Of a stretch of 64,000 nucleotides of DNA, positions 1 through 16,638 are shown piece by piece. The notes beneath the pieces were generated by a model. It did not search any database. It was not told the origin of the DNA and saw only the letters and a list, made by a program, of their open reading frames with translations. Location of the stretch: positions 10,921 to 74,920 of the forward strand of contig JBDRWI010000001.1 in NCBI GenBank assembly GCA_039802265.1, in the 5' to 3' direction. The position numbers and the translations under genes are program-made. The DNA comes from a candidate division WOR-3 bacterium. GTDB taxonomy: Bacteria > Hydrothermota > Tepidihabitantia > SM23-42 > JAOAFX01. Every line of letters starts with the position of its first letter. Position 1 is the first letter of the stretch.

Positions 1-1239
1 ATGTATACTGACGGAGTCCTTGACGCATTCAGTGAACTCCAGAAACGATTTCATAATCAAAAATTGTTTATCGGACCCTGGGGACACGGCGATGCCTGGG
101 GTTCAAGATATCAGGGCGATCTGGTCTACCCACCCAATGCCGAATTGGATGAACTGAGCTTTATCGAAATGTTAATGGATTGGTACGATTACTGGCTAAA
201 TCAGGGTGGGGGACCAGTTCCTTCTCCAAAGGTAAAATTTTATTTGATGGGCGATTGCGATACACCCGATACCACAAACTGGAACCACTGGGTGGAGGCG
301 GACACCTGGCCATTGCCCCAAGCTGTTTATAAAAAATATTATCTAAAAGAAAACCATCTCCTTGATACAATTCCGCCCTCAATCTCGGCAATTGATACAT
401 TCATCTATGACCCGGCAAATCCCTGTACCACATATGGTGGTCGGGAATTTATCGGGCTTACCCATGGTTATGGACCGATTGACCAGCGCCCCATTGAAAA
501 TCGTTCAGATGTACTCATCTTCTCTACACCTCCATTATCAATGCCCCTCACCGTGATCGGAAAACTAAAATTCGTTCTGTATGCGGCTTCGAATTGCTAT
601 GACACTGACTGGACAGTACGAATAACCGATGTATATCCAGATGGTCGGTCAATTCTTGTCACTGATAATATTCTGATGGCACGCCACCGCCATGGATTTG
701 ACCGCGAGGATTCATTAATACCGGATGTCGTTGATACCTTCAATATTGACCTTTGGAGCACGGCGCTGGTATTTAATGCCGGCCATCGACTGAGGGTAAT
801 TATTTCCTCTTCTAATTACCCAAGATTTGAGAAAAATCCAAATACTGGTGCCCCTTTTCAAAGAAATGACCCCAATTTTATACCGGCAATTCAAAAGATT
901 TATCGCACCACAGATTATCCATCCCATCTATTACTTCCCATCATCCCTGAATCCAGTCCCGCAATAAGAGAGATTAGAACAGAACAACTCGGGGAAGTCC
1001 ATTTCTCTTTTCCAACTGTTTCTTCAAAACCGATAATCAACTTCACACTGAATACTCCCAATTATATTCAGGTTTTAATATACGATATATGTGGAAGAGT
1101 AGTATGGTCAAGCGACAAAAATTCTTACCCACCGGGTCGCTATCAAATAGTTCCTCCTCGCTTAAATAACGGAATATATTTTCTCAGGATAAAGACCACA
1201 AAGGAAAAATATTTAAAGAAAATAATCGTCATTCACTGA
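1..1239 (+). CDS. CocE/NonD (PepX-like) serine hydrolase, C-terminal part, with T9SS-type C-terminal sorting domain; likely truncated by the window edge
   Basis: IGPWGH motif; PepX_C-type segments DQRPIENRSDVLIFST, DTDWTVRITDVYPDG and GHRLRVIISSSNYPRF; tail IYDICGRVV...NGIYFLRI...KKIIVIH. Confidence 0.85.
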   Translation: MYTDGVLDAFSELQKRFHNQKLFIGPWGHGDAWGSRYQGDLVYPPNAELDELSFIEMLMDWYDYWLNQGGGPVPSPKVKFYLMGDCDTPDTTNWNHWVEADTWPLPQAVYKKYYLKENHLLDTIPPSISAIDTFIYDPANPCTTYGGREFIGLTHGYGPIDQRPIENRSDVLIFSTPPLSMPLTVIGKLKFVLYAASNCYDTDWTVRITDVYPDGRSILVTDNILMARHRHGFDREDSLIPDVVDTFNIDLWSTALVFNAGHRLRVIISSSNYPRFEKNPNTGAPFQRNDPNFIPAIQKIYRTTDYPSHLLLPIIPESSPAIREIRTEQLGEVHFSFPTVSSKPIINFTLNTPNYIQVLIYDICGRVVWSSDKNSYPPGRYQIVPPRLNNGIYFLRIKTTKEKYLKKIIVIH

Positions 1240-1278
1240 AAGGCTTCAGGACTGTTAACCCTTATAGCATCAGGGGCC

Positions 1279-1306
1279 TTGACGACCAGAAAAAAATCCA
1301 TATAAT
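1279..1306 (+). promoter_or_regulatory. sigma70-type promoter of the cyclase operon
   Basis: TTGACG-16 nt-TATAAT, ATG 8 nt downstream. Confidence 0.65.
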
Positions 1307-1314
1307 ATAAGGTT

Positions 1315-4300
1315 ATGAAATGTGTCATCTGTAATTCCGATAAAATCCCGCAAGCTGCCGAATTCTGTCCCAATTGTGGTACACAACTTAAAATTGAATC
1401 CACCAGAGATAAGGGCACCGAACGGCTAAAAATCCTTGGTGGTGAATCACGCTTCGTAACCCTGTTCTTTGTAGATTTTATTATTATGAACCCAGCGGAG
1501 GATAAAATAACCAAACAGAATATCATCTATCTGAGCGATTTGATGGAAAAAGTCGCTGCGATTGTCAAAAAATACGATGGAACGGTAAATCGAATAATGC
1601 CCGATTACCGACTTCTCATAATATTCGGAGCACCCAAAGTCCATACCGATGACCCGAATCGTGCCGTCCGGTGTGTATTAGAGATTAAGAAATATCTTTA
1701 TGAAAGAAGACGATTAGAAGCGCCAATCACCAGGTTTAATATAAAAATTGGAATCAATTCCGGCTGGATTTTTTTTGGATATGTCCTTGAAAATCCGCCA
1801 TTTTTGACTGTAATCGGTGATACGGTCAATATTGCAGCCCGTCTTGCTCAGATGAGTATGCCAGATCAAATCTTGATGAGCGAGAATACATATAATCTGC
1901 TGCCTGACTTGATTGTTGCTGAACACATCGGAATGACTTATGTAAGAGGTAGGTCCGGCTCTTTGGATGTCTATAATCTGATAGATATAAGATTTGAAAC
2001 TCTGCAGATGCCCAAATGCCCATTCTGGGGACGGAAGGAGGAAATGGCGCGATTGATTGCGCTTACCCAAAAAATCAAAGAGAATAGAATCAGCATTGGA
2101 ATCATTACCGGACAGATGGGCATTGGTAAGACACGGTTGAAAGAGGAATTTGAAAATTTTCTGAGAGCGGATGGTTCGTTCCGCTTCATTGAAAGCCACT
2201 GTACAGTAGAAATGCAGACCCCCTATTATCCATTTAAATTGTTATTTCGTGAGTATTTTAATTTGAAGGAAAGCGATAGCCGGGCAAATATCGCCGAGAA
2301 GATTGACCGCTTTGTCTCGGAAAACAACCTTGATCCACAGGAAATAAAGGGAATAAAACATCTCTTTCTAACCGACCTGCAGCGGTTGTGGGGTGAAAAT
2401 TTAATTTCAATCAATGAAGAGATATTTATCGCGGTTGGTAATCTGCTCAGATTTGAATGCAAAAAAAATCCCTTAGTAATTATCTTTGAAGAATTCAACC
2501 GCGCCGATTCAATGACGAAAAACCTTGTCGCATATTTAGCCGCGGAATTAGTTAATAACTCAATTATGTTTCTGCTGATCAATTACACCGGTGATTTATT
2601 CAAAAAAGACAACAATAATAATTTTGAAGAAATTAATCTCGGACCGCTGAGTAAAGAGACAATAGCCAATCTGGTAAATTATTATCTCACCGATGCCGAC
2701 CCCAATCTGATTGAATTTTTATATAAAACTACTGGCGGCAATCCACTATTCACCATTGAAACCATTAAAAATGTAAAACGAAGAAATATAATCAAAAAGG
2801 AAGCATCTGGAAGATGGTTATTGGACAGAGAGAAACACTTTACCTTTCTTGACGACCTCTACAGTGTGGTAATGTCGGGACTTGATGCACTGGCTCCAGA
2901 ATACCGCTTGATTATTGATTACGCCTCGGTCATCGGTTACAGCTTTAATTATCACATTCTTAAAGAAATATTAGAAGACGAAGAAAATCTATTAGAAAGA
3001 TTGAACTATCTAAAAAATGAAGATTACATCATTCAATTCAAAGATGATACAGACCCGATTTATATCTTTAGACACAACTTATTAAAAGATGCCGCATATA
3101 CCACACTGCCACTGAAAAAGAGAAAAGAATTACACCGCCGGGTGGCTGTTCTATTGGAAAAATCTTATTCTGAGCAACTTTCCGAATATTACGAGACTAT
3201 TGGATACCATTACCATGAAGCAGAAAATTATAAAAAAGCCGCTGAATACTTTAAAATGGCTGGTGACAAGGCAAAAAATCTCTATGCGATTGAACAGGCA
3301 ATAAATTTTTATAACAATGTGCTAAAAATAGGCCGCGAATATAAAGAACAGATATCGCCAAATTTATTAAGACAGACTGAATTAAATCTGACCGACATCT
3401 ATGAAATACTTGGTGATACCCAGAGAATGAAAGAAATTGCTGAAAGTGGACTCAGTGCAGCAGAAATAGAAAAAAACCAGAAAGAAATTCTTTTATTCAG
3501 CGAACGAAAGGCAATTTCACTTCTGATGTCCGGAGATTATAAGAGTGCTGAATCATTACTTCTTGAGTCGGTAGAAAACTGCCCAGCGGAATACGCCGAT
3601 GTCCTGACCCAATTATATTCAGACCTCGGATTACTTTATGCCGAAAAATATGAATATGAAAAGAGCATCCTGAATTATAACCTGACCTGGAACACCGCCC
3701 GGACCTACGGTATTAAAGAAGGGGAAATAAGATGCCTTTTGAATCTCTCCCAGTTACACACAAAGTTAGGTAATTATGAACTGGCATATGAATACTTGAA
3801 TTACGGTCTGGACGAACTCATAACTGAAGAAAATCTACGCCCGAAGGCACAGTATAAATATAATTTGGGAATTCTGGATTATCAGGTCTGGAATCTAAAC
3901 AAGGCGATAGAACAATTAACCGAGGCATTCAACATTGCCGAGCGGAGTAGCCATGAGATACAGATAAAGTCTGCCCTTGAACTTGCCCTTATTCATTCCC
4001 TGATGCAAAATTATGATGAGGCAGCAAGATTGGTTGAATATGTTGATAAAAAAATTACCCCCACAATCAGAGAGATTTTACTTTCCGAGATTAACCTCAA
4101 AAAGGCAATTTTTTACGAAAATAAAAAAGAGCGGGAACGGGTTGTCCCCTTTCTAACAAACGCCCTGAAATTAGCCCAGAAATATAATCAGCAAGAAACC
4201 ATTGTTCACTGTCTACTACTGAAGGCAGACATAGATGAAATCAAAGCGATTGAAAATTTAAAGTCGGCTCTGGAAATCGCTGAAACCCTGAAGTTATCAC

Positions 4301-4485
4301 CCCTGATCGGGCAGGTAATGTATAAACTTGCCTGTATGTATGTGAAAATGAATGAAAATGAGAAGGCACAATATTACGGCCGCAAGGCACTCCTAATTTA
4401 TAATGATATTAAAACAAAGTTAAAGGACATAAATCAAAATTATTATATCAACAGACCCGAATATGTAGCATTGCTTGAGATATAA
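1315..4485 (+). CDS. Zinc ribbon + class III nucleotide cyclase + STAND/AAA ATPase + TPR protein
   Basis: CxxC...CPNCG; cyclase motifs IFGAP...DDPNRAVRC, IGINSG and TVIGDTVNIAARL; Walker A GQMGIGKT; GGNPLF; YIFRHNLLKDAAY; C-terminal TPR-like helical repeats. Confidence 0.9.
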   Translation: MKCVICNSDKIPQAAEFCPNCGTQLKIESTRDKGTERLKILGGESRFVTLFFVDFIIMNPAEDKITKQNIIYLSDLMEKVAAIVKKYDGTVNRIMPDYRLLIIFGAPKVHTDDPNRAVRCVLEIKKYLYERRRLEAPITRFNIKIGINSGWIFFGYVLENPPFLTVIGDTVNIAARLAQMSMPDQILMSENTYNLLPDLIVAEHIGMTYVRGRSGSLDVYNLIDIRFETLQMPKCPFWGRKEEMARLIALTQKIKENRISIGIITGQMGIGKTRLKEEFENFLRADGSFRFIESHCTVEMQTPYYPFKLLFREYFNLKESDSRANIAEKIDRFVSENNLDPQEIKGIKHLFLTDLQRLWGENLISINEEIFIAVGNLLRFECKKNPLVIIFEEFNRADSMTKNLVAYLAAELVNNSIMFLLINYTGDLFKKDNNNNFEEINLGPLSKETIANLVNYYLTDADPNLIEFLYKTTGGNPLFTIETIKNVKRRNIIKKEASGRWLLDREKHFTFLDDLYSVVMSGLDALAPEYRLIIDYASVIGYSFNYHILKEILEDEENLLERLNYLKNEDYIIQFKDDTDPIYIFRHNLLKDAAYTTLPLKKRKELHRRVAVLLEKSYSEQLSEYYETIGYHYHEAENYKKAAEYFKMAGDKAKNLYAIEQAINFYNNVLKIGREYKEQISPNLLRQTELNLTDIYEILGDTQRMKEIAESGLSAAEIEKNQKEILLFSERKAISLLMSGDYKSAESLLLESVENCPAEYADVLTQLYSDLGLLYAEKYEYEKSILNYNLTWNTARTYGIKEGEIRCLLNLSQLHTKLGNYELAYEYLNYGLDELITEENLRPKAQYKYNLGILDYQVWNLNKAIEQLTEAFNIAERSSHEIQIKSALELALIHSLMQNYDEAARLVEYVDKKITPTIREILLSEINLKKAIFYENKKERERVVPFLTNALKLAQKYNQQETIVHCLLLKADIDEIKAIENLKSALEIAETLKLSPLIGQVMYKLACMYVKMNENEKAQYYGRKALLIYNDIKTKLKDINQNYYINRPEYVALLEI

Positions 4486-4490
4486 CGATT

Positions 4491-5129
4491 ATGAAGTGTG
4501 TTAATTGTAATCAGCCAATTTCCGAAATATTTAATTACTGCCCCTATTGTGGGGCATTACTTCAAGAACAAAAAGGTCTACCTCTGGAAGATATAAATCT
4601 GGCATTTATTCGCGCCGACCTCTCAGGCTTTACCGGTCTCAGCGAAAAAATGGAATCTGAGGATGTTATGAATCTGTTGAATGGCATATTCGGCGAATTT
4701 CAGAAGATAATTAACTCTTACCAGGGCATTATCTACCAGGTTATCGGTGACGAAATCGTTGCCGTCTTCGGTTTAAAAAGGGGTGTGACTTTTTCCTTCC
4801 ATATGGCAATTCTTGCTGCTGAGGATATATTCAAAAAATTGAATGAGTTTAATAAAACCGGAAAGTTTGAAAGACCTATCGGATTAAAGGTCGGGGCAGA
4901 AGCAGACACTGCCTCAGTATATAAAACACATGGTGGACTTCAGACAGCGCTAATCATAACCGATGGTTTTAAAAAGAGTCTGATTTTACAGAAGAATGCC
5001 GAAGACAACACCCTTTTAGTTGGTGAGAATCTATATCAGGCGACGAAATCCTTTTTTGAATTCATTCCCTATGGCGAACTGGTTGAAGATTCTCTGTCCA
5101 TAAAGGCATATAAGTTTCTCTTAAGATAA
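4491..5129 (+). CDS. Zinc ribbon + class III nucleotide cyclase domain protein (keeps the metal-binding Asp residues, lacks the NxxxR motif)
   Basis: CVNC...CPYCG; RADLSGFTGLSE; YQVIGDEIVAVFG. Confidence 0.8.
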   Translation: MKCVNCNQPISEIFNYCPYCGALLQEQKGLPLEDINLAFIRADLSGFTGLSEKMESEDVMNLLNGIFGEFQKIINSYQGIIYQVIGDEIVAVFGLKRGVTFSFHMAILAAEDIFKKLNEFNKTGKFERPIGLKVGAEADTASVYKTHGGLQTALIITDGFKKSLILQKNAEDNTLLVGENLYQATKSFFEFIPYGELVEDSLSIKAYKFLLR

Positions 5130-5134
5130 ATCCC

Positions 5135-7312
5135 ATGGAAACATCAGCACACCCTGAATTTTATCACGAATTCATAAAGCAGATCGGACTGGGTATAAAT
5201 ATCTCAAGGATCTATCCGAAGGGGCATCCTTCCCTGGAACCAGTAGTCCAAAGACTCAAGATATTGCTAAAAGAACTACCCTTAGAAAAGGAATCTATTT
5301 CCATTGTTGTAATCGAAGATATTCTGATGATAGAAGACAATAGATTTGAAGCCAAAAAATTGCCAATCGTGAAGAGTCTGGTTGATCGCTTTACACAACT
5401 GGGTATCAAGAGTATTACCTTTGATGTCGATGCCACCGATGAGGATATAAAGGGATTCTTCCTTGCCATGGCATCAACCCCCGCCGAGATTTCGGATTAC
5501 GGTGATATTGTCTCATTGTTGAGAACAAAGGGAGTATTGAAGGTTAAACTGAATAAATACCGGGTGGGTGTATTCTCTTCGGAGGAAGAGGTAAAGGAAA
5601 TCAACTGGACCAACTTTCTTGAGTCAATTGCCCTTTCTCAAGAAAGCCAGAGTGAAGAAGAACGAATAAAACAGTTGGGCAGTTTTCTCGCCGGCGTCGG
5701 TGTTATCGGAAGTGAACCGGTTGAAACACAGACGAGTAAAGTAATCGGCGGGCTCGAAAAGATTGCCTTGATGATTGCCGACCAGTATGGTGAAGAAAGA
5801 TGGAATGAATATTCAATCATCTTTTCAAGAATCCTGGCAGTGCTTTCGCCCACCATCAAAAAGAATATCTTGAAGTATAAAACTGAAAACAAAAAACTTG
5901 CCACTCTTTTCAAGAGCCTCATACCCACGATGTCGGATGAAGATATTATTGATATAATCGCAACCAAGGCTAAGGAAAAGAAGGATACAAGCGAGGATGA
6001 AATCATTGATATTTTAAAGAATGTTGCTGGTACCAGACTTCCCAGTATCCTCTCAACGGTGAGGGCCAACTTCCCCGAATTAAATTTTGAAAAAATTGTT
6101 TCACAACTTATGGCCGAACTGAAGACCATCAAAGGGACTGAGGTTGCCGATAAGTTTATGAGTAAGAATCTGGAAGCCGAAATGAGAAGTTTCTTCCCCC
6201 AACTAAGAGAAGCAGCCCCCGAAGAAAGGGTTAAGGCAATTGAAGGACTTTTGGCTTTCAGTAAAAAGTTATTTGATGCCAAAGATTATGAACTACTCCG
6301 CCTCCTCATTGACCGCCTCGATTCAATGTCCGATACAGAGGAAAATATCACCGTCTTTAAAAAAATTATGGAGGCAATTAAATTATTATATCTCAAATCA
6401 GAAGAATTAGGATTTGCTGATATCATTCAGTTTATTTCCAAAAAATTCTCACGGCATTTAATTCGTAAGGAAAAAGTCTTTCTTGATAAAAAGAATGTTG
6501 TTATCAAGATAATCGGCGATATAAGGGACCAGAACTACCTTGCCGAATTAGTATCTTTACTTTGGGACCCGGGAACCTTTGTTGAAGCACGCGAGGCACT
6601 GATTGCAATGTCAGACTTCTCACTGCCCATTTTGATTGACACCTTAAAAGAGACCGAGGATAAGAGTGTAAGATTAAAGATAATTGATGTGATACTCCGA
6701 ATTGGAGAAAAGGCAATACCCCAAACTCTTAAACTTCTCTCCAGCGATGATTGGTTTGTTAAAAGAAATGGTTTATTTATCCTCGGTGAACTCAAGGCAA
6801 AAGATGCGGTGGATGAGATTGGTAGGTTGTTAGACAGCAAAGAAGAACAGGTACAGATTGAAGTCCTTACCACCCTCAGCAAGATAGGCACGGAAAAAAC
6901 CAAGGAATATATAAAAAAGGGACTGGATAGCCAATTTCCTCAGGTTGTAATTGCTGCAATGAAAAATTTAACTAAAGAAGATGTAAAACCAAAATTACCC
7001 CAAATAATTCAACTATTAAAGCGGCGAAAAGGAACTCCCGATGAAAAAGAAGAAGCACTTAGAATTGGTCTAATTAATTTACTCGGAGAATTGGGTGATG
7101 ATTCGGTCGTTGATAGGCTGATTGAAATATTAGATGAAAAGATATTATTTAAGAACGAATTGCTTTTACCCACCAAGGAGGCAGTTTTACGTGCCCTTGC
7201 CCAGATCAAAACTGATAAGGCATTAAGTGCGTTGAAACAGGCAACAAACCATCGGGATGCCTTTGTCGCTACAACTGCCCGGGAGATTCTCAAGAGAATC
7301 AAACCGGGATAA
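5135..7312 (+). CDS. HEAT/PBS-lyase repeat protein with N-terminal YPxGHP domain
   Basis: C-terminal HEAT repeats (DWFVKRNGLFILGEL, EQVQIEVLTTLSKIG, EAVLRALAQIK); 5 nt after the upstream gene. Confidence 0.8.
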   Translation: METSAHPEFYHEFIKQIGLGINISRIYPKGHPSLEPVVQRLKILLKELPLEKESISIVVIEDILMIEDNRFEAKKLPIVKSLVDRFTQLGIKSITFDVDATDEDIKGFFLAMASTPAEISDYGDIVSLLRTKGVLKVKLNKYRVGVFSSEEEVKEINWTNFLESIALSQESQSEEERIKQLGSFLAGVGVIGSEPVETQTSKVIGGLEKIALMIADQYGEERWNEYSIIFSRILAVLSPTIKKNILKYKTENKKLATLFKSLIPTMSDEDIIDIIATKAKEKKDTSEDEIIDILKNVAGTRLPSILSTVRANFPELNFEKIVSQLMAELKTIKGTEVADKFMSKNLEAEMRSFFPQLREAAPEERVKAIEGLLAFSKKLFDAKDYELLRLLIDRLDSMSDTEENITVFKKIMEAIKLLYLKSEELGFADIIQFISKKFSRHLIRKEKVFLDKKNVVIKIIGDIRDQNYLAELVSLLWDPGTFVEAREALIAMSDFSLPILIDTLKETEDKSVRLKIIDVILRIGEKAIPQTLKLLSSDDWFVKRNGLFILGELKAKDAVDEIGRLLDSKEEQVQIEVLTTLSKIGTEKTKEYIKKGLDSQFPQVVIAAMKNLTKEDVKPKLPQIIQLLKRRKGTPDEKEEALRIGLINLLGELGDDSVVDRLIEILDEKILFKNELLLPTKEAVLRALAQIKTDKALSALKQATNHRDAFVATTAREILKRIKPG

Positions 7313-7374
7313 GACATATAGTTTTTCCAAAAAAATTTGCCTTCACACCATGAAGTATTTCTCTCTCCCCTTTT

Positions 7375-7410
7375 AAAAAACCCGGCCGCGGCCCGAAGGC
7401 CACGACCGGG
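7375..7410 (-). terminator. Rho-independent terminator, minus-strand specific
   Basis: Minus strand CCCGGTCGTGGCC-TTCG-GGCCGCGGCCGGG-TTTTTT: 13-bp stem with two G-U pairs that exist only on this strand, cUUCGg loop, U6 tail. Confidence 0.85.
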
Positions 7411-7451
7411 AGGGGAAAGATGTCTAATAATTAGACAACAGATAAGTTAAT
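7375..7451 (-). ncRNA. Candidate small RNA (~75 nt)
   Basis: TTGACA-16-TATAAT on the minus strand (7485-7458), no ORF, 8-bp hairpin, CCCCUCC tract, then a terminator. Confidence 0.5.
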
Positions 7452-7457
7452 AAGTTT

Positions 7458-7528
7458 ATTATAATTAAAAATTGAATAATGTCAACGTTATTAAAATAGT
7501 TGACATTTAACTTATTTTGATTTATAAT
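7458..7528. promoter_or_regulatory. Back-to-back consensus sigma70 promoters
   Basis: Minus: TTGACA(7485-7480)-16-TATAAT(7463-7458). Plus: TTGACA(7500-7505)-17-TATAAT(7523-7528). Confidence 0.75.
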
Positions 7529-7546
7529 TTCACAAGGAGCCTGAAT

Positions 7547-7699
7547 ATGAAGATTATTCTGATAATTATAATCCTGGCGGTACTTGCTTGGATTATTACC
7601 TTAGTAATCCAGTCGGCAGAAAAAAAGAGAAGGGAAGAGTATATAAAACAGAAAATGGAAGAAAAGAAAAAGGAAGAAGAAAGGAGTTTTAGACCTTAA
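7547..7699 (+). CDS. Small single-TM membrane protein (50 aa) with highly charged C-terminus
   Basis: Consensus promoter; AAGGAG SD before ATG 7547; hydrophobic MKIILIIIILAVLAWIITLVI followed by a K/E/R-rich helix. Confidence 0.7.
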   Translation: MKIILIIIILAVLAWIITLVIQSAEKKRREEYIKQKMEEKKKEEERSFRP

Positions 7700-8552
7700 G
7701 ATAGGCAATCAATTTATTCATATCATCAGGAATGGGTACGGAAAACTCTATCCATTTTTTAGTTTCTGGATGCAGCAAACCTATTTCTGATGAATGAAGC
7801 ATCTGTCTGGGAAAGAAGATTTGTCTTTCCAAACTTTTCCAGTATTTCTTATCTCCAACAATCGGATATCCGAGTTGAGCCATTTGAATTCTTATTTGAT
7901 GGGTTCTTCCAGTTATTGGGAAAAATTCTAACAGAGTAGCATCTTTGAATTTTTCAACTACCCGATACCTTGTCGCAGCATACTCTTTCTTTCCTAACTT
8001 TCCTCTTAAAATTTCTGATTTTTTTTCAATCACACCATTAACAATACCTATGTATTTCTTTTTTATAACTTGCCTTTTAAATTGCTCAATTAGATATTTT
8101 TTACTAATTCCATCTTTTGCAAAGATAACCACCCCGCTTGTCTCACGGTCAAGACGGTGCACTGGATAGACAATTTTTCCATTTTCTGATAATCTTTCTT
8201 CAATGGACCTTCCCGATTCAGAAGATTCTTTATTCGTAAGGATAAATGGGGGTTTATTAACTACAATGAGATTACGGTCTTCATAAACTATTTCAATATA
8301 GCTAAGTTGCTTTAAATATTCAGTTCGGTCAATTAAAATGATAGAATCTCGGGTGCGAACCCTCTTGGAAGGAAATGTTATCTGACTTCCGTTAAGCAGA
8401 ACAAATCCCCATTCTATAAGACTTCGCGCCTCCTTCCTTGATATCTCAGCAATTACCCCCAGGACATAATCAATTCGCCTTGAATTTAGTTTATCAGGGA
8501 CATCGTATTTTTTATAAGAAAATAAAGAGTTAATAAAATGCCCGAAATTCAC
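7689..8552 (-). CDS. RluA/RluD family 23S rRNA pseudouridine synthase
   Basis: S4-like N-terminus, VVNKP, HRLDRETSG, TGRTHQIR, PIVGD. Confidence 0.95.
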   Translation of the reverse strand: MNFGHFINSLFSYKKYDVPDKLNSRRIDYVLGVIAEISRKEARSLIEWGFVLLNGSQITFPSKRVRTRDSIILIDRTEYLKQLSYIEIVYEDRNLIVVNKPPFILTNKESSESGRSIEERLSENGKIVYPVHRLDRETSGVVIFAKDGISKKYLIEQFKRQVIKKKYIGIVNGVIEKKSEILRGKLGKKEYAATRYRVVEKFKDATLLEFFPITGRTHQIRIQMAQLGYPIVGDKKYWKSLERQIFFPRQMLHSSEIGLLHPETKKWIEFSVPIPDDMNKLIAYLKV

Positions 8553-8638
8553 TTCTTTATTTTATGTAAATCGACTGATTAGTCAATACCGATTTATTGG
8601 AATATTGATTTTTTAAGCATTTTTTTATAATATTATAG

Positions 8639-9745
8639 ATGAACCGATTTTACGAAACCCAGACCTTATTATTTTTACTCCTTTTAACAAATTGCCTTCC
8701 ATACATCGCAAAGAGAGAAAGAATTAAACAAATACGCATTGCTATCCTGAGTGGGATTGATTCGGTTGTAGTAACTGGAATTAACCAGAAAGAATTCCTC
8801 CAAGATTATAAAATTTCAGTCAGTGATTCACTTCCTTTGTTCTTAAAAACAAAGGAAGGAAGGGTGATGGTGAATGGTAAACCATACCGCGGGAATCTTG
8901 AAATTAAAAATATAAATAATAAAATCTGGGTAATCAATGTAGTAGATATTGAAGACTATCTTAAAGGTGTTGTTCCCTGTGAAATTGGCAGGATAACAAA
9001 AGACTTGATGGAAGCAGCGAAGGCCCAAGCAATTGCTGCAAGAACCTATGCCTATAGTCATATAAACCAATATGCTCAATTGGGCTTTGACTTATATGCC
9101 ACAACCCGGGACCAGCTCTATGGCGGAATAAATGCCGAGGATGAATTGATTAGTACGGCAATTAAAAAAACCAGCGGATTTATTTTAACCTATCATGGAC
9201 AACCAATCCAGGCAAAATATCATTCTACCTGCGGTGGCAGGACCGCTGACTTCAATGATGCCTGGAGGGGCATCGGACCTCCTTACTTAAAAAGCGTAGT
9301 ATGTGAATTTTGTCAGATTAGCCCCCACTACTACTGGGAGAAGAGAATGCACAAAGATGATTTCTTGAAAAATTTAAAGATAAATCTGCAGAAAATTGGA
9401 ATCAAAATATCAGAAAAAGAGATAATCAGGGGATTCCGTTTCAAAAGAAATCCCAAAAGTGGACGGGTTATAAGTACAATCGTCCTGACCGATTCAGGCG
9501 AATATAAGGTTGACCTTTATAATATCCGGACCCTCTTTGGTACACCCGATGACCCAAATGGACTGTTGAAATCTAATTATTTCAGTCTTGAGGTGCAGAA
9601 TGATAGTATTATCATTAAAGGCAGAGGCTACGGACATGGTGTAGGCATGTGTCAGTTCGGAGCAATTGGTATGGCAAAAAGGGGAAAGAATTATAAAGAA
9701 ATTCTAATGCATTATTATCCTAACACAAAACTGGAGAGACATTAG
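8639..9745 (+). CDS. SpoIID/LytB domain lytic transglycosylase-like lipoprotein
   Basis: EDYLKGVVPCE, AKAQAIAARTYA, YHSTCGG, GYGHGVGMCQFGA; lipobox-like LLTNC. Confidence 0.92.
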   Translation: MNRFYETQTLLFLLLLTNCLPYIAKRERIKQIRIAILSGIDSVVVTGINQKEFLQDYKISVSDSLPLFLKTKEGRVMVNGKPYRGNLEIKNINNKIWVINVVDIEDYLKGVVPCEIGRITKDLMEAAKAQAIAARTYAYSHINQYAQLGFDLYATTRDQLYGGINAEDELISTAIKKTSGFILTYHGQPIQAKYHSTCGGRTADFNDAWRGIGPPYLKSVVCEFCQISPHYYWEKRMHKDDFLKNLKINLQKIGIKISEKEIIRGFRFKRNPKSGRVISTIVLTDSGEYKVDLYNIRTLFGTPDDPNGLLKSNYFSLEVQNDSIIIKGRGYGHGVGMCQFGAIGMAKRGKNYKEILMHYYPNTKLERH

Positions 9746-9759
9746 AATCTTATATGTTC

Positions 9760-9801
9760 TAGATTGCCGCATCCTGACTTTTGCTCGGGTTCGCAATGAC
9801 A
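9760..9801. repeat. Degenerate REP-like palindrome (AGATTGC...GCAATGAC type)
   Basis: AGATTGCCGCATCCTGACTTTTGCTCGGGTTCGCAATGAC with paired ATTGC/GCAAT arms. Confidence 0.5.
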
Positions 9802-9818
9802 TTAATTTGCATCAGGTA

Positions 9819-9846
9819 TTGACAAACATAAATTTATGGATATAAT
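9819..9846 (+). promoter_or_regulatory. sigma70-type promoter
   Basis: TTGACA-16-TATAAT, then AGGAGG SD before GTG 9871. Confidence 0.75.
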
Positions 9847-9870
9847 TTGTTCTTAAAAGAAGGAGGAACT

Positions 9871-10917
9871 GTGAAAAATCACAAAATAGGGCCCATCTTA
9901 CTGCTTGGCTGTATAATACCATTTATTTTACATGGAGCAAAGGTAGGTGTTTTGCATCTGAAGGCGGTCGGTGTCGCAACTGAAACAGCCGAGGCAGTTG
10001 CTGGTCTGCTTGTAAGTGACCTAACAAACTATGGTCATCAGGTATTGAATCCGGAGGCAATTGATGCGACAGCTGGCGAAAGGGTAGAGTGTTACGAAAG
10101 TGGCTGTGCGGCTGAGGTTGGTTTTAAGGCAAAGGTAGAACGGATGATATTCGGCTCGGTTTCAAGATTGGGTGAGAAGTATATTGTTCAAGTTTCTGTG
10201 GTCAATGTTTCTACAAGGGAAGTTGTATGGTCAGGCAGCCTTGCCGCGAAATCCGCAGAAGACCTTGATACGGTTGTTAAGAGAATTGCCAAGGCGATTG
10301 CTGAGGGTAAAAAAGTAGAAGAGGGTGCTGAAGTTGGCGCAATAACAGAGCAGGAGGTAACTCAGGAGGTAAAGAGAAAGGAGACTTTCTATGCGACCGG
10401 TTTCAATTTTATTTATGGCTTACCTATAAGCGGTTATGCCGGTGCAAGCGGCCTTATGGGAGGAAGCCTGATAAATTGGTATGAAACCCCACATTTCGCA
10501 GTTGAAACGGGTTTATCTTATTTTTGGTCACTCAACGCCATGACTACGAGTGGCGTTACAACAGAACCGAGTGTCATTGATCAAGGCTTTAACCTCTCTT
10601 TCTTCTATCTATTCTCTAAAGAAGATTTTTCACCCTATGTGGGCGGTGGTCTGGGTCCGCGCTTTATCGAAATGAAGGCCGGCACTATGGATTACGGGAT
10701 GAATTTTGGTATGACATTCAATGCTGGTGGTGGTTTGGCTCTTTTACGGACCTATGATTTTCACATCCTGATAGACGGAAGAATTATATTAAATCTTGCG
10801 GAAATACCCCATTATGAGGGACCTCACAGTAGTTTCAATTTTAGCGCCGGCATTGTCTATAGACACCGTGGTAAAGGCGGCTGTGCTCGCGGTTGTGGAG
10901 GCGGTGGTTGTTTTTAG
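9871..10917 (+). CDS. Secreted/outer-membrane protein: CsgG/TolB_N-like domain + small beta-barrel, with Gly/Cys tail
   Basis: Signal peptide; ECYESGCAAEVG...IFGSVSRLGEKYIV; barrel-like strands FSPYVGGGLG and GMTFNAGGG; ends GGCARGCGGGGCF. Confidence 0.6.
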   Translation: MKNHKIGPILLLGCIIPFILHGAKVGVLHLKAVGVATETAEAVAGLLVSDLTNYGHQVLNPEAIDATAGERVECYESGCAAEVGFKAKVERMIFGSVSRLGEKYIVQVSVVNVSTREVVWSGSLAAKSAEDLDTVVKRIAKAIAEGKKVEEGAEVGAITEQEVTQEVKRKETFYATGFNFIYGLPISGYAGASGLMGGSLINWYETPHFAVETGLSYFWSLNAMTTSGVTTEPSVIDQGFNLSFFYLFSKEDFSPYVGGGLGPRFIEMKAGTMDYGMNFGMTFNAGGGLALLRTYDFHILIDGRIILNLAEIPHYEGPHSSFNFSAGIVYRHRGKGGCARGCGGGGCF

Positions 10918-10933
10918 AGGTATTTGGAATCCC

Positions 10934-10961
10934 AAAAGGACATACCGCTTTGTATCCTTTT
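10934..10961. terminator. Probable bidirectional terminator between convergent genes
   Basis: AAAAGGA...TCCTTTT inverted repeat. Confidence 0.45.
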
Positions 10962-11010
10962 TCATTTATCTACTAATTTTTTTTAGATTCCTTAAAGAAT
11001 CACTCAAATT

Positions 11011-11577
11011 CTAAATTAAACTCGTGTTATCTTCTTTTTTGCCAATCAACTTCTTTAATATGTATCCGGTCATTACTTTATTTAAATGGTCAAAACCGGC
11101 CGAGCCGGCGAGGTCGGTGGCTTTAATTTCGGTTATGTAGCATTCATCGGTGTCAATATTCTTCTTCTCCACCTTTATCGGGTATTCAGCATCAAATGTA
11201 ATCATAAACTCCTTTAAGGGCACATTGAATAGACCCTTTTCTGAATATTCAGAAATCAAACCCTCGATCTCTCGGCGATTGTGCGCGAGTCTTTCAATCT
11301 CTTTTTCAATCTCGGCACGGGCAGTGGTTATCTTGCCAAAAAGGAACTGCAATTCGACAGGACCTTTGATTTGTTTTAACCTCTCCGCTCCCTTCTTTAA
11401 TGCCCCCTCAAGAATTGTAATCGCCTTCTGAATCCTTTCCTGTGCCTCAATCAAGCAGGCAAGGTATGCCTCAACCACCTGAAAAGAAGGCATCTTTTCT
11501 AAATTATCATAGAACAACTGTCCAAATGGCTTACAGAAGGGCCCCTTTTCAGTATCTTCTATATCTTCAAAGGGCAT
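11011..11577 (-). CDS. Hypothetical protein with coiled-coil centre
   Basis: 188-aa ORF with AGGAGG SD, co-oriented with DUF1015/serA; no family recognised. Confidence 0.7.
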   Translation of the reverse strand: MPFEDIEDTEKGPFCKPFGQLFYDNLEKMPSFQVVEAYLACLIEAQERIQKAITILEGALKKGAERLKQIKGPVELQFLFGKITTARAEIEKEIERLAHNRREIEGLISEYSEKGLFNVPLKEFMITFDAEYPIKVEKKNIDTDECYITEIKATDLAGSAGFDHLNKVMTGYILKKLIGKKEDNTSLI

Positions 11578-11634
11578 ATCGCCTCCTACATGTATCTCTT
11601 TTTAAACGACTTCTACAATATTCTCTTTCTACCT

Positions 11635-12909
11635 TTAAACTAATCCCAGGTCATAGAATACAAGACCGGATATCAATTTGGGATAAAAGTCCGTTGACTT
11701 CTGGGGCATTCTTTCCTTTTGCATTGCGACATTTCGAACCTGCTCCGGTCTGGTTGGATTCATTAAAAAAGCAAACTGGAATTCTTTATTATCAACCCTC
11801 TTTATTGTTTCTTCTATTCCCCTTTGATATCTTATATATTCTTCAATCCTTTCTGGTTTTATACCAAGGGTATTCTCAATTAAGAGTGTATGGAGCACTG
11901 CAACATCTAAATTCTGATAATCTTTGCTTCTTTCCGGAAGTAGTTCCCCCATTATCTTTTCATCTTTCAACTTTAGCAGATAACTCCCCGAAATAGAATA
12001 AAATACAAAGGCCTGCGCCTTTTCTCTGGTAATCTCGGATTTTATACTTTCTTTTTCAATCTTTCTTATATCAAAGTATTTGCTGGCTTTCTTCAGAAAC
12101 GAATCAAGATTGAAATCCCTAAGGTTCATCACCAGTCTATGGGTTGGGAGTATAACCAATCCTGGATCCTGAATGTTTACAAGTGTCACCATTTTGTAAT
12201 TTGCCGGGTGGTTTTTATCTATTGCACCAAGTTCATTACGATAATTCAATGCGGTTTCATAACGGTGATGACCATCAGCAATTACCAGCACTGCCTCTTT
12301 TAAAACATTCTGGATATTCTTAATGGTATCTTTATCAGAGACCTGCCATAATTTGTGTGTAACATTACGGTCGTCCACCACATCAATAATTGGTTCTCTT
12401 TTGCATTTCTCTTCCAACATCTCCATAACTCGATTCCGGGGGTCGGTATATAGGAGAAAGACGGGTTCAAAATCCTTTTTGGTTATCCGGGTAAGATTCA
12501 ACCGGTCTTCTTTAGGCTTTGACAGGGTCTTTTCATGTGGCAGAATATTCCCCTTGCCCAACTCTTCCAGCCGCAAACAACAGATGAATCCCTTTCTTAT
12601 GTAATCCTTTCCTTCCAGAGAAAATTCCTGGAAATAAGGATACAAAGAATCCTCTTTATCCTGAATAAATACCTTCTCTTTAAGCCAATCTTCCACAAAT
12701 CTCTTGGCATCTTGGTATTCCTTATTGCGGTCGTGTCCATCCGCATAATGAGTCAAAACCAAATTGACATAATTATAGGGACTGCGTCTTTTGTATTCCT
12801 TCTCCATCTCATCGGTAATCTGGTCATAGGGCTGGGTAATAACATCCGCAAGATTTCTAATCTTCTTCAGATTATATCTAATCCCCTTAAATGGCTTGAC
12901 CTCAGGCAT
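11635..12909 (-). CDS. DUF1015 family protein
   Basis: PFKGIRY...PYD, ILPHEKT, IADGHHRYETA, ILPTHR, MPQKSTDFYPK. Confidence 0.92.
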   Translation of the reverse strand: MPEVKPFKGIRYNLKKIRNLADVITQPYDQITDEMEKEYKRRSPYNYVNLVLTHYADGHDRNKEYQDAKRFVEDWLKEKVFIQDKEDSLYPYFQEFSLEGKDYIRKGFICCLRLEELGKGNILPHEKTLSKPKEDRLNLTRITKKDFEPVFLLYTDPRNRVMEMLEEKCKREPIIDVVDDRNVTHKLWQVSDKDTIKNIQNVLKEAVLVIADGHHRYETALNYRNELGAIDKNHPANYKMVTLVNIQDPGLVILPTHRLVMNLRDFNLDSFLKKASKYFDIRKIEKESIKSEITREKAQAFVFYSISGSYLLKLKDEKIMGELLPERSKDYQNLDVAVLHTLLIENTLGIKPERIEEYIRYQRGIEETIKRVDNKEFQFAFLMNPTRPEQVRNVAMQKERMPQKSTDFYPKLISGLVFYDLGLV

Positions 12910-14254: not shown

Positions 14255-16504
14255 TCAAGTAATTTTCTGCAACAATCTCCTTGCTTCCTCAGAATCTGGC
14301 ATTATCTTTAAAACCCTTTGCAGTATCCTTTTTGCATCGTTTTTATCTCCATGCTCAAGGCAAATTTTTGCAAAATTTATTGCCTCGGATTCAAAATGGT
14401 TTAAAATCATAAATCGGTAGTTTAGTGACCACTCATCAAAATTCTTCCTGAAGGGTTGACCACGAAATAACCGAAACGCCCGCCAGAAGTGTTCACGGGC
14501 AATTTCCCACTTCTCGCCGTTTAAGAATACCTTTGCACCCGCAAGCAATTGTTTAAATTCATCAATATCAGTTGCAAAATGAATCCCCTGATTTATTATA
14601 TAAGAATCGGCGCCAACGCGTGCCCAGTTAACCAAGTAGGTTGGGATTTTCAACGACTTCTTTATTCTGACTAAGAGATGTGATAGATTTTGTTTTGGTG
14701 TCTCACTTTTAGGCCAGAAATTTTGAAAAATGTCTACCAATGGCACCTTCTTGCCGGGACTATCGGCCTTTATTGCAAAATGAATCAAAAATGCTGTATC
14801 CTTGGGCGATAATTTCACCTTTAAATAATCATTTTTTCTATAAACCACTAAATCCCCAAGTATCCTCAGATTGTAGACCAAAATATTACGATTAAATACG
14901 GGCAGAGTAAACATTGACCGGGGTATTTTAGGATTTCTCCCGATTTCCATTTCACGGATGACCAAGTGAGAAAAAAAGGGCACGAGCAATAGAAAATCTG
15001 AGACCAAATATTTACGATGAGCGAGGGCAAGTGCTTTTTGATAATTACTACTTCTCAGTAGAGCAGCGATCTTTATCAACGGCATGTAATTCCCCTTGAT
15101 TATCTGATTCAATTTTTCTTTTGATTGTTTTGAAACAATTAATGTAATAATCTTTCCCCAGTGTCTTGACTTCTTTGATAGATGGTAGATGCCTTTTAGC
15201 ACACCCATACCCTCCTGTATCATGCCCAGTGAACTATAGGCACTTGCCATCACTAAATAAGCAGCTGATGCGATGTTAATCAATTCTTCTTTCTTTGCTG
15301 CTTTGAGGGATTCCAATGACAACGATATCGCCGCCTCCGGTTTGCCATTTATTAAAGAATAGACACCTTCAAAGAAAAGACGCATTGCCTCAGCACCCCA
15401 AACCTGAAATTCCGTTCTTTTGAAGATTGACATATCTTTAAGATAATCCCCTTTATGCCAACGAATAATAGTCAAAAAATTCATATATTTTGCCTTATTC
15501 TCTTCCGATGCCTGACTCAATGCCTGACAAAACAATCTTTCTGCGTGACGGTAATCCTGAACCCAGGTATAAAGTGTAGCAAGCATCGCAGGAAACTCAC
15601 TCGGCAGAAGCCTTCGGTATCTTATAATTCGCCCGCACTCTCTAATAATTTTCCATGCACCATTGTAATCCAGGGCGATCACCCGGGCAATACCCTCTCC
15701 AATTAGAATTACATATTTAAAAAGAGAAAGTATATTGGAAAAATAATTACCGCACGGCTTAAGAACTTTTTTGATTTTTTTGATTTTATCGTTGAACTCT
15801 TTCCATTTACCCGCATATGATAATGCCCCACCCAGCATAATTCCAGCTTTTAATGATGAAAAGTATAAATTATCTTCTATACATTCGCTGTAGAGAGATT
15901 CCATTTTATCGAGAAATTCAGACAGGGGAATCTTCTGGAATAACTGGAGATACTTCTCAATGCGTCTTTTTAGGTTCAGGTATTCATCGGGAATTTTGAT
16001 TAACAGTTCATTAGCCGGAAGCGCGGGGATGGAATTTAATAAATCGGCTGCCGCCGTTATATTGCCGGAATCAAAAAGCCTGATTGCCTGATGATACTTC
16101 ATTTTCGCCTCTTTATTCCAAGTTGTACACTGGGTAAGATTGGGATCGAGTGAATTCTTATCAAACCCGGCATAACCATATCTCTTCCAGATATTCCAGA
16201 TTCCTTTTAGAGAAATCTTTATTCCTGAGCTTCTTAAAATTTTTTGTGCCCGTCTTACGGTTAACGAAGGATTGTTTTCTTTCAAAAATGCAATCTTCTC
16301 TTCTGTTGCGCGCTCAATCCTATTCCAAGGTCTATTGTAGTTACTCAGAAGACCAAACTCTCCATGGATTCGGTATATCTTAAGCCACTTATAAACCGTG
16401 CGCGGATGAACATTCCATTTCACGGCGGTCTTGGCAATAGACATTCCATTGTTTAAATGATCCTGAACTGCTGAAAGACGGAAAGAAAATGGTCGGTCGC
16501 CCAT
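14255..16504 (-). CDS. Transcriptional regulator: transposase-like tandem HTH + TPR region + OmpR-type wHTH/BTAD (SARP)
   Basis: N-terminal SIAKTAVKWNVHPRTVYKWLKIYRIHGEFGL...ISLKGIWNIWKRYG; C-terminal LRILGDLVV...FWP...TDIDEF...LFRGQPF...DEW. Start moved to ATG 16504, downstream of the promoter. Confidence 0.75.
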   Translation of the reverse strand: MGDRPFSFRLSAVQDHLNNGMSIAKTAVKWNVHPRTVYKWLKIYRIHGEFGLLSNYNRPWNRIERATEEKIAFLKENNPSLTVRRAQKILRSSGIKISLKGIWNIWKRYGYAGFDKNSLDPNLTQCTTWNKEAKMKYHQAIRLFDSGNITAAADLLNSIPALPANELLIKIPDEYLNLKRRIEKYLQLFQKIPLSEFLDKMESLYSECIEDNLYFSSLKAGIMLGGALSYAGKWKEFNDKIKKIKKVLKPCGNYFSNILSLFKYVILIGEGIARVIALDYNGAWKIIRECGRIIRYRRLLPSEFPAMLATLYTWVQDYRHAERLFCQALSQASEENKAKYMNFLTIIRWHKGDYLKDMSIFKRTEFQVWGAEAMRLFFEGVYSLINGKPEAAISLSLESLKAAKKEELINIASAAYLVMASAYSSLGMIQEGMGVLKGIYHLSKKSRHWGKIITLIVSKQSKEKLNQIIKGNYMPLIKIAALLRSSNYQKALALAHRKYLVSDFLLLVPFFSHLVIREMEIGRNPKIPRSMFTLPVFNRNILVYNLRILGDLVVYRKNDYLKVKLSPKDTAFLIHFAIKADSPGKKVPLVDIFQNFWPKSETPKQNLSHLLVRIKKSLKIPTYLVNWARVGADSYIINQGIHFATDIDEFKQLLAGAKVFLNGEKWEIAREHFWRAFRLFRGQPFRKNFDEWSLNYRFMILNHFESEAINFAKICLEHGDKNDAKRILQRVLKIMPDSEEARRLLQKIT

Positions 16505-16514
16505 TTGTGGAAAC

Positions 16515-16542
16515 ATTGTATATAAAAATTTATCTGTGTCAA
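16515..16542 (-). promoter_or_regulatory. sigma70-type promoter of the HTH-TPR-BTAD regulator
   Basis: TTGACA-16-TACAAT. Confidence 0.65.
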
Positions 16543-16638
16543 GTAACCTTCCTGGTGAAATCGCATTTAACGAAAAATAATATACCATAATTTATCCGGC
16601 AGCAAAAATGTGACATCAGGCTAAATATTTTTCTATAA

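Follow-up and report, generated by a model that had tools for sequence, protein, structure and literature searches.

The window, a 64,000-nucleotide stretch of contig JBDRWI010000001.1 from a candidate division WOR-3 bacterium, carries a real, coupled and conserved three-gene operon made up of the genes L, S and H. L and S are probably paired subunits of a single class III nucleotide cyclase, which their residue patterns predict to bind and catalyze as a heterodimer. The open reading frames (ORFs) form a single plus-strand run, with L at 1315-4485 (1056 amino acids, aa), S at 4491-5129 (212 aa) and H at 5135-7312 (725 aa), and gaps of 5 nucleotides (nt) separate L from S and S from H. A sequence-only reading of this DNA had placed L and S 5 nt apart, each opening with a CxxC..CxxC zinc ribbon. 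This arrangement is confirmed, and all the motifs it cited are found in the two sequences. The pair it described is real and coupled, but the third coupled gene, H, had been overlooked.

Complementary half-sites on two genes

In class III cyclases, the residues of one active site come from two monomers: the first supplies two aspartates and an Arg on beta4, and the other supplies two base-reading residues, an Asn, an Arg and a Lys from the beta7-beta8 region (PMC2576301). We counted these residues in 54 S and 47 L sequences, with 21 single-domain paralogues as controls. S retains the metal side, since the first aspartate (Asp1), the Gly and the second aspartate (Asp2) are each present in 54/54 and a basic beta4 residue (Arg or Lys) in 53/54; on its other side, Thr/Asp occurs in 0/54, Asn in 1/54 and Arg in 1/54. 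L is reciprocal, keeping the base-reading and transition-state residues (Thr 47/47, Asn 47/47, Arg 46/47, beta7-beta8 Lys or Arg 46/47), with Asp1 (D54 in the window L) in 3/47 and the Gly of the GD motif in 4/47. All 21 controls carry Asp, Gly, Asp, Lys and Asn together. Each catalytic residue of one site is retained on exactly one gene of the pair and released on the other, which is the C1/C2-type partition when set against PMC2576301. Among six distant L proteins, five have lost both aspartates. The S pattern also extends to 120 database homologues: D87 is found in 120/120, D43 in 118/120, Asn in 4/120 and Arg in 0/120. Homologues of S carry the name candidate division WOR-3.

Adjacency and the complementary residue pattern in homologues had been set beforehand as a refuting test, and both hold throughout the order and in distant WOR-3 lineages, also where the gene order has changed. 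The earlier proposal of an obligate heterodimer passes this genomic test. Neither protein has the residue complement of a homodimeric bacterial class III cyclase: S is without Thr/Asp, Asn and Arg, and L is without Asp1 in 44/47 and the Gly of GD in 43/47, the window L being borderline because its D54 and D97 are present.

In the proposed heterodimer, both metal aspartates would come from S, along with the beta4 Lys, and L would contribute Lys/Arg and Thr for reading the base, Asn and Arg from helix alpha4 and a Lys/Arg from the beta7-beta8 region. An L:S dimer would then hold one working site and one dead site, the latter possibly regulatory. The product is probably cyclic AMP (cAMP), a choice held with some reserve because Thr suits adenine yet the Lys position varies. 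Nucleotide-dependent opening or oligomerization of the STAND-TPR part of L would set when the L cyclase half meets S. Gating of dimer formation would follow established STAND behavior, and control of this meeting by the nucleotide switch is plausible because the STAND motifs are intact; we favor it by a small degree. Stand-alone cyclic nucleotide monophosphate (cNMP)-binding proteins would be the likely readers of the messenger, and the genome encodes four cNMP-binding domains with no CRP helix-turn-helix (HTH) over the cut-off. The four cNMP-binding proteins are short (frames of 158-210 aa, on contigs C17, C2, C31 and C12), and the one on C31 lies two genes from a GGDEF-STAND gene.

Domain organization of L and S

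L (1315..4485, plus strand) consists of a zinc ribbon (aa 3-21), a C2-like class III cyclase domain (aa ~44-226), a STAND module with a helical and winged-helix part (aa ~236-620) and TPR repeats (aa ~621-1056). Pfam recognizes the zinc ribbon, Guanylate_cyc at 48-221 (E 8e-12), AAA_16 at 237-412 and TPR, and PF00211 scores above the cut-off in both L and S, identifying each as a nucleotide cyclase domain of class III. The L cyclase domain (1444..1992, plus strand) has the base and transition-state residues R93, T165, N172, R176 and R211, and its metal loop is degenerate around D54 and P96-D97. An AlphaFold2 (AF2) model of L 1-232 has a predicted local distance difference test (pLDDT) score of 85; its best match is CyaB (3r5g, E 1.4e-15, template modeling score 0.84 by target). 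L also matches human soluble adenylyl cyclase (sAC) chains at E 1e-9.

The ATPase part is well preserved among the 34 L proteins of the order. In Walker A (G266-T273; 2110..2133, plus strand), G, G, G and K are invariant and T/S occurs in 34/34, and in Walker B (F391-E392-E393; 2485..2493, plus strand), F and the first E occur in 34/34 and the second acidic residue in 33/34. Because Walker A, Walker B, GxP and the winged-helix residues of this STAND NTPase, the His among them, are nearly invariant, with AAA_16 and TPR present, the switch looks functional in the order. All four zinc-ribbon Cys are found in 33/34 L, the remaining one being N-terminally truncated, and in 38/38 S.

S (4491..5129, plus strand) pairs a zinc ribbon with a C1-like class III cyclase domain (Pfam Zn ribbon and Guanylate_cyc, E 2e-8). 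It has D43, G86-D87 and K133, is without Thr/Asp, Asn, Arg and the beta7-beta8 Lys, and carries Gln83 at the specificity position. Gln occupies this dead-site position in 45/54 S, a position presumably equivalent to the bicarbonate-linked one of sAC. A related-locus search with S alone as query gave no match.

Weighing the heterodimer

Several observations count against two obligate halves, and the first concern L itself. The sequence-only reading described the metal loops of L as degraded. That holds for the loops, in which GFT is absent and Pro replaces Gly with a one-residue insertion, but not for the side chains, because D54 and D97 remain. In the window L, both metal positions are Asp and beta4 carries Lys (D54, D97, K144), and Asp2 is present in 38/47 L, as Pro-Asp with the insertion, so weak activity of an L homodimer is possible. 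Mycobacterial cyclases with non-canonical residues, such as Rv1900c and Rv0386, can be active. L might on these grounds be an active homodimeric cyclase with unusual loops, S being accessory or independent, but we regard this as very improbable given the loss of the GFT loop, of Asp1 in most L and of both aspartates in most distant L. The S aspartates, moreover, are invariant though S has no Asn/Arg.

Further points concern specificity and partners. The L specificity position is Lys or Arg in just 36/47 (Lys 18, Arg 18, Gln 4, Thr 2, others 5), against Lys in 21/21 controls, and this variation makes the product uncertain. The genome also encodes at least seven complete cyclase domains that are possible partners of S. 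Together with the invariant S residues Q167 (120/120), K168 (118/120) and N169 (117/120), which have no known catalytic role, these observations would suit a pseudo-enzyme complex in which the two proteins associate, perhaps also with ATP, but make no messenger, or an S that acts as a dominant-negative or trans-complementing subunit for other cyclases. The strict division of one site's residues between the two genes argues the other way, as does the co-occurrence of S and L even where a genome has few other cyclases, and the pseudo-enzyme complex is improbable.

The remaining points touch gating and inheritance. The STAND part of L in the lineage with the order S-H-L is much diverged, scores poorly against the L profile and falls outside other L in the STAND tree, where a single clade is not rejected (approximately unbiased test P value, p-AU, 0.215). 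In one genome (G154), L occurs but S and H do not, and the L frame there enters a secA fragment in a way that resembles an assembly junction. H homologues occur without cyclases at 7/20 loci or more, and co-inheritance among kin is non-independent evidence. With these points weighed, the L:S heterodimer is still the reading that we prefer.

Conservation and inheritance of the operon

The operon is retained across the order and beyond it. L-S-H is the arrangement at 47 of the 50 loci that have a whole S; two loci are S-H-L, and one has S-H at a contig end. The L-S gap ranges from -38 to +5 nt, and the S-H gap from -14 to +6 nt in 49/50. Further loci comprise two L-S-H, two S-H-L and three H-L where S would lie off the contig or is uncovered. 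In the first 38 relatives, L-S-H is found in 37, and the other shows S split in two where its contig begins. The triad occurs beyond the order in nine genomes, and with the queries used no orthologue came from many of the 271 genomes of the phylum. An S orthologue is present as a single copy in 46/48 genomes of the order; of the other two, one is a 470-contig genome and one has an L frame running into a secA fragment. Broken copies, likely assembly artefacts, include L running into a secA fragment (locus record L278, genome G154), L in two separated pieces (L279-L280, G025) and S broken at an N run (L057, G003). L, S and H show high distance correlations throughout (0.65-0.96), which reflect shared descent alone.

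A sigma-70-type promoter is predicted by consensus at 1279..1306 (plus strand, 11/12 consensus matches), and its -10 box ends 8 nt upstream of the L ATG. TTGAC with a -10 box beside the start codon recurs in 13/39 L genes. This arrangement predicts a leaderless mRNA.

Neighboring genes vary and are of housekeeping type, with RlmN, PolX-PHP, PurH, GuaB, GyrB, Lon and NadE among the 20 proteins scanned, none of which is a defence family. In three distant genomes, purH is the gene immediately upstream of either the operon or H, and in two, H is followed by a gene judged by eye to be guaA-like (locus records L059, L060, L065 and L070).

The earlier suggestion of a role in defence is not supported by these data, given the single-copy inheritance, the housekeeping neighbors and the near-consensus promoter. 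An NOD-like receptor (NLR)-like or Pycsar-like anti-phage system, in which TPR repeats sense phage and a cyclic nucleotide fires an effector, would fit the STAND-TPR architecture and the weak PADLOC matches to PycC (best E 6e-8) and TPR. We consider it most improbable: the TPR part is conserved like the cyclase (0.60 vs 0.61), and neither a cNMP-binding effector in the operon nor an effector domain in L, S or H is found. The operon lacks the marks of Pycsar- or Avs-type defence: there is no cognate effector gene, the distribution is not patchy and the neighbors are housekeeping genes. The best reading is a vertically inherited housekeeping signaling module rather than a defence island.

H and its unnamed domain

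H (5135..7312, plus strand) directly follows S in both gene orders. It has an unnamed N-terminal alpha/beta domain (aa ~7-140) with a Y-P-x-x-H-P motif, a helical middle and a HEAT solenoid. Pfam recognizes the HEAT repeats and has no family for the N-domain, and an AF2 model shows the alpha/beta N-domain followed by a long helical solenoid. Fold searches with whole H as query (Foldseek, VIA) return generic HEAT solenoids alone, a PDB sequence search gives no match under E 0.5, and an Atlas search yields unnamed clusters alone.

The N-domain is nevertheless widespread: at E 0.001 it has 3,484 cluster representatives, and looking for short stand-alone forms gave four matches of 72-195 aa. Among 56 hand-picked matches, its fusion partners are histidine kinases (6), PilB/MshE ATPases (4) and GGDEF-STAND proteins (4), as well as HD and receiver domains. 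In 26 of the 147 top N-domain matches, STAND precedes two N-domains, and the H-type C-terminal part is also present in 25 of the 26. All four full-length proteins of this kind that were scanned have GGDEF in front, and the named carriers of STAND-N-domain fusions are Desulfobacterales. The GGDEF-STAND proteins are about 1410 aa long (P0150, P0153, P0169 and about 20 more) and end in two H N-domains plus HEAT, with no TPR.

Because the H module takes the place of L's TPR in these fusions, H appears functionally tied to cyclase-STAND switches. H likely acts in the L/S pathway, as an adaptor or sensor arm; direct contact is conceivable, though rather doubtful. A complex prediction for S and H scored 0.00, which counts neither for nor against contact. 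Two other relatives of H are a 679-aa paralogue in the same genome (C51:14075-16114), with no cyclase neighbor and folK/panB-like genes upstream by eye, and a homologue directly upstream of cheW, cheA and cheC genes (L064:346-6315, genome G090).

Origin of the pair

S forms one group in all cyclase trees, and L forms one group in three trees but not in a fourth; without motif columns, support is 97/89 for S and 91/86 for L. In two of the trees, 32/93 rows (long-branch or near-duplicate) were dropped, and subsets were used in the STAND tree and another. Sisterhood of L and S, as expected under the duplication proposed earlier, is recovered in no tree, and an L+S clade is not rejected (p-AU 0.19). 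L instead joins the C2 half of the sAC-type proteins in which C1, C2 and STAND are fused, with support of 98/93 and 98/85 in two trees, and both have an insertion at the GD loop. Such a fused gene exists in the same genome (C18:19707-22415, locus record L079), where the ORF stops at 902 aa and is followed by a 512-aa ORF, and fused C1-C2-STAND-like matches occur in 39/151 WOR-3 genomes.

The pair may therefore share ancestry with these fused proteins, by fission or as a pre-fusion state, rather than descend from tandem duplication, an origin compatible with the heterodimer. We rate this as possible but unlikely. Removing the motif columns lowers support for the L and sAC-type C2 grouping to 87/79, S stays apart from sAC-type C1 in careful trees, the STAND tree keeps L and the sAC type apart (joint clade p-AU 0.067), and both L and S bear the zinc ribbon of the single-domain type.

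Parallel splits in other phyla

Chloroflexota and Riflebacteria have complementary gene pairs of independent origin. An L motif was used to pull 73 non-WOR-3 loci, a sample biased by that motif against lone C1-like genes; 70 of their 76 domains are complete, three are C2-like, and each of these three is accompanied in its locus by a C1-like partner. One of the three is from Chloroflexota and one from Riflebacteria. In Chloroflexota, 6/31 related genomes have two cyclase-STAND genes side by side, of which the first is C1-like and the second C2-like, and the split is independent because the pair is nested among complete paralogues. An Ardenticatenaceae record (L213:3552-9108) is one example, with relatives in L254-L258, L271-L273, L285 and L286. 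One Riflebacteria genome (G272) has 62 cyclase matches. In 21 of its stretches, mostly picked for neighboring matches, C1-like beside C2-like is clear in nine and partial in four, and three have both in one frame. The genes there (L228:846-6624 and L233-L252) include many adjacent HAMP-cyclases of about 1000 aa with complementary half-sites, some fused as 2000-aa proteins. A single origin of the three split C2-like sets is rejected (p-AU 2e-35).

Other features of the window

Between H and a convergent pseudouridine synthase gene lies a G+C-rich hairpin of 13 bp (7381..7410, no strand assigned), which on consensus match alone scores as a terminator on the minus strand. At 7458-7528, two perfect sigma-70 consensus sites stand back to back in an A+T-rich gap, with no long plus-strand ORF downstream and no Rfam or tRNA match. 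The window contains no tRNA, and positions 1-12000 give no Rfam match. Further along, 14255-16588 encodes a 777-aa protein with an N-terminal HTH, TPR and a C-terminal BTAD-like domain.

Meaning of the split

If the heterodimer is true, an asymmetric design usually deemed animal arose in bacteria as separate genes. Cyclase genes labeled degenerate would need re-annotation, since each half alone would be called dead. It would be a natural two-gene heterodimer kept through much of one phylum, and two other phyla offer independent parallels. Its small soluble proteins would suit studies of how asymmetric catalysis and an allosteric pseudo-site evolve, the system could address how STAND-TPR gates a cyclase, a question shared with sAC, and H would offer the first functional handle on its unnamed signaling domain. 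The widest picture is tentative, and we judge it rather unlikely to hold in full: a two-gene C1/C2 cyclase gated by STAND-TPR and H, with the H N-domain plus HEAT as a widespread regulatory arm of STAND-coupled cyclases, at least three bacterial origins of separate-gene asymmetric heterodimers, and L perhaps a free-standing relative of the sAC-type C2-STAND half.

Bacterial sAC-like proteins exist, and the fused gene on contig C18 lies in this same genome. A 2022 review presents bacterial class III cyclases as homodimers and holds that no fused dimeric form is known from bacteria (PMC9552081); because the latter statement conflicts with both, it gives weak proof of novelty. The titles and abstracts searched, which lie outside subscription reviews and supplements, describe no heterodimeric cyclase encoded by two bacterial genes, and PMC2447327, in which the word "heterodimer" occurs three times, may anticipate one.

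Comparison with known systems

Among bacterial systems, the single-domain zinc ribbon-cyclase-STAND-TPR proteins, which we take to be SWACOS-type STAND proteins, share the domain order of L, and five such paralogues occur in this genome. They differ in holding all catalytic motifs in one chain (21/21), with no partner gene needed. CyaB, CyaC, Cya2 and Rv1625c share the fold and motifs, but each subunit of those homodimers has both half-sites. Pycsar PycC resembles the pair in its class III fold and weak profile matches; unlike it, the L/S operon has no cNMP-binding effector gene and is inherited as a conserved single copy.

Full-length sAC consists of fused C1-C2 domains followed by STAND. sAC (ADCY10) resembles L and S in having a C1-like and a C2-like domain, Thr at the second specificity position and a C2 half joined to STAND. 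In contrast, the L/S halves lie on two ORFs in all loci, and the C1-like gene is never directly upstream of the C2-like one. L and S also each have a zinc ribbon, Gln rather than a basic residue occupies the S dead-site position, and the extra gene H is present.

Animal soluble guanylyl cyclase (sGC) alpha/beta and the C1/C2 domains of membrane adenylyl cyclase (AC) are similar in pairing one active site with one degenerate, possibly allosteric site, and sGC is likewise a two-gene heterodimer. A one-site heterodimer with an allosteric pseudo-site is described for animal cyclases (PMC3591389, PMC2576301). L and S have none of the H-NOX, PAS, coiled-coil or membrane-anchor elements of these enzymes. 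They use Lys/Arg and Thr rather than Glu and Cys or Lys and Asp, and their bacterial origin is independent.

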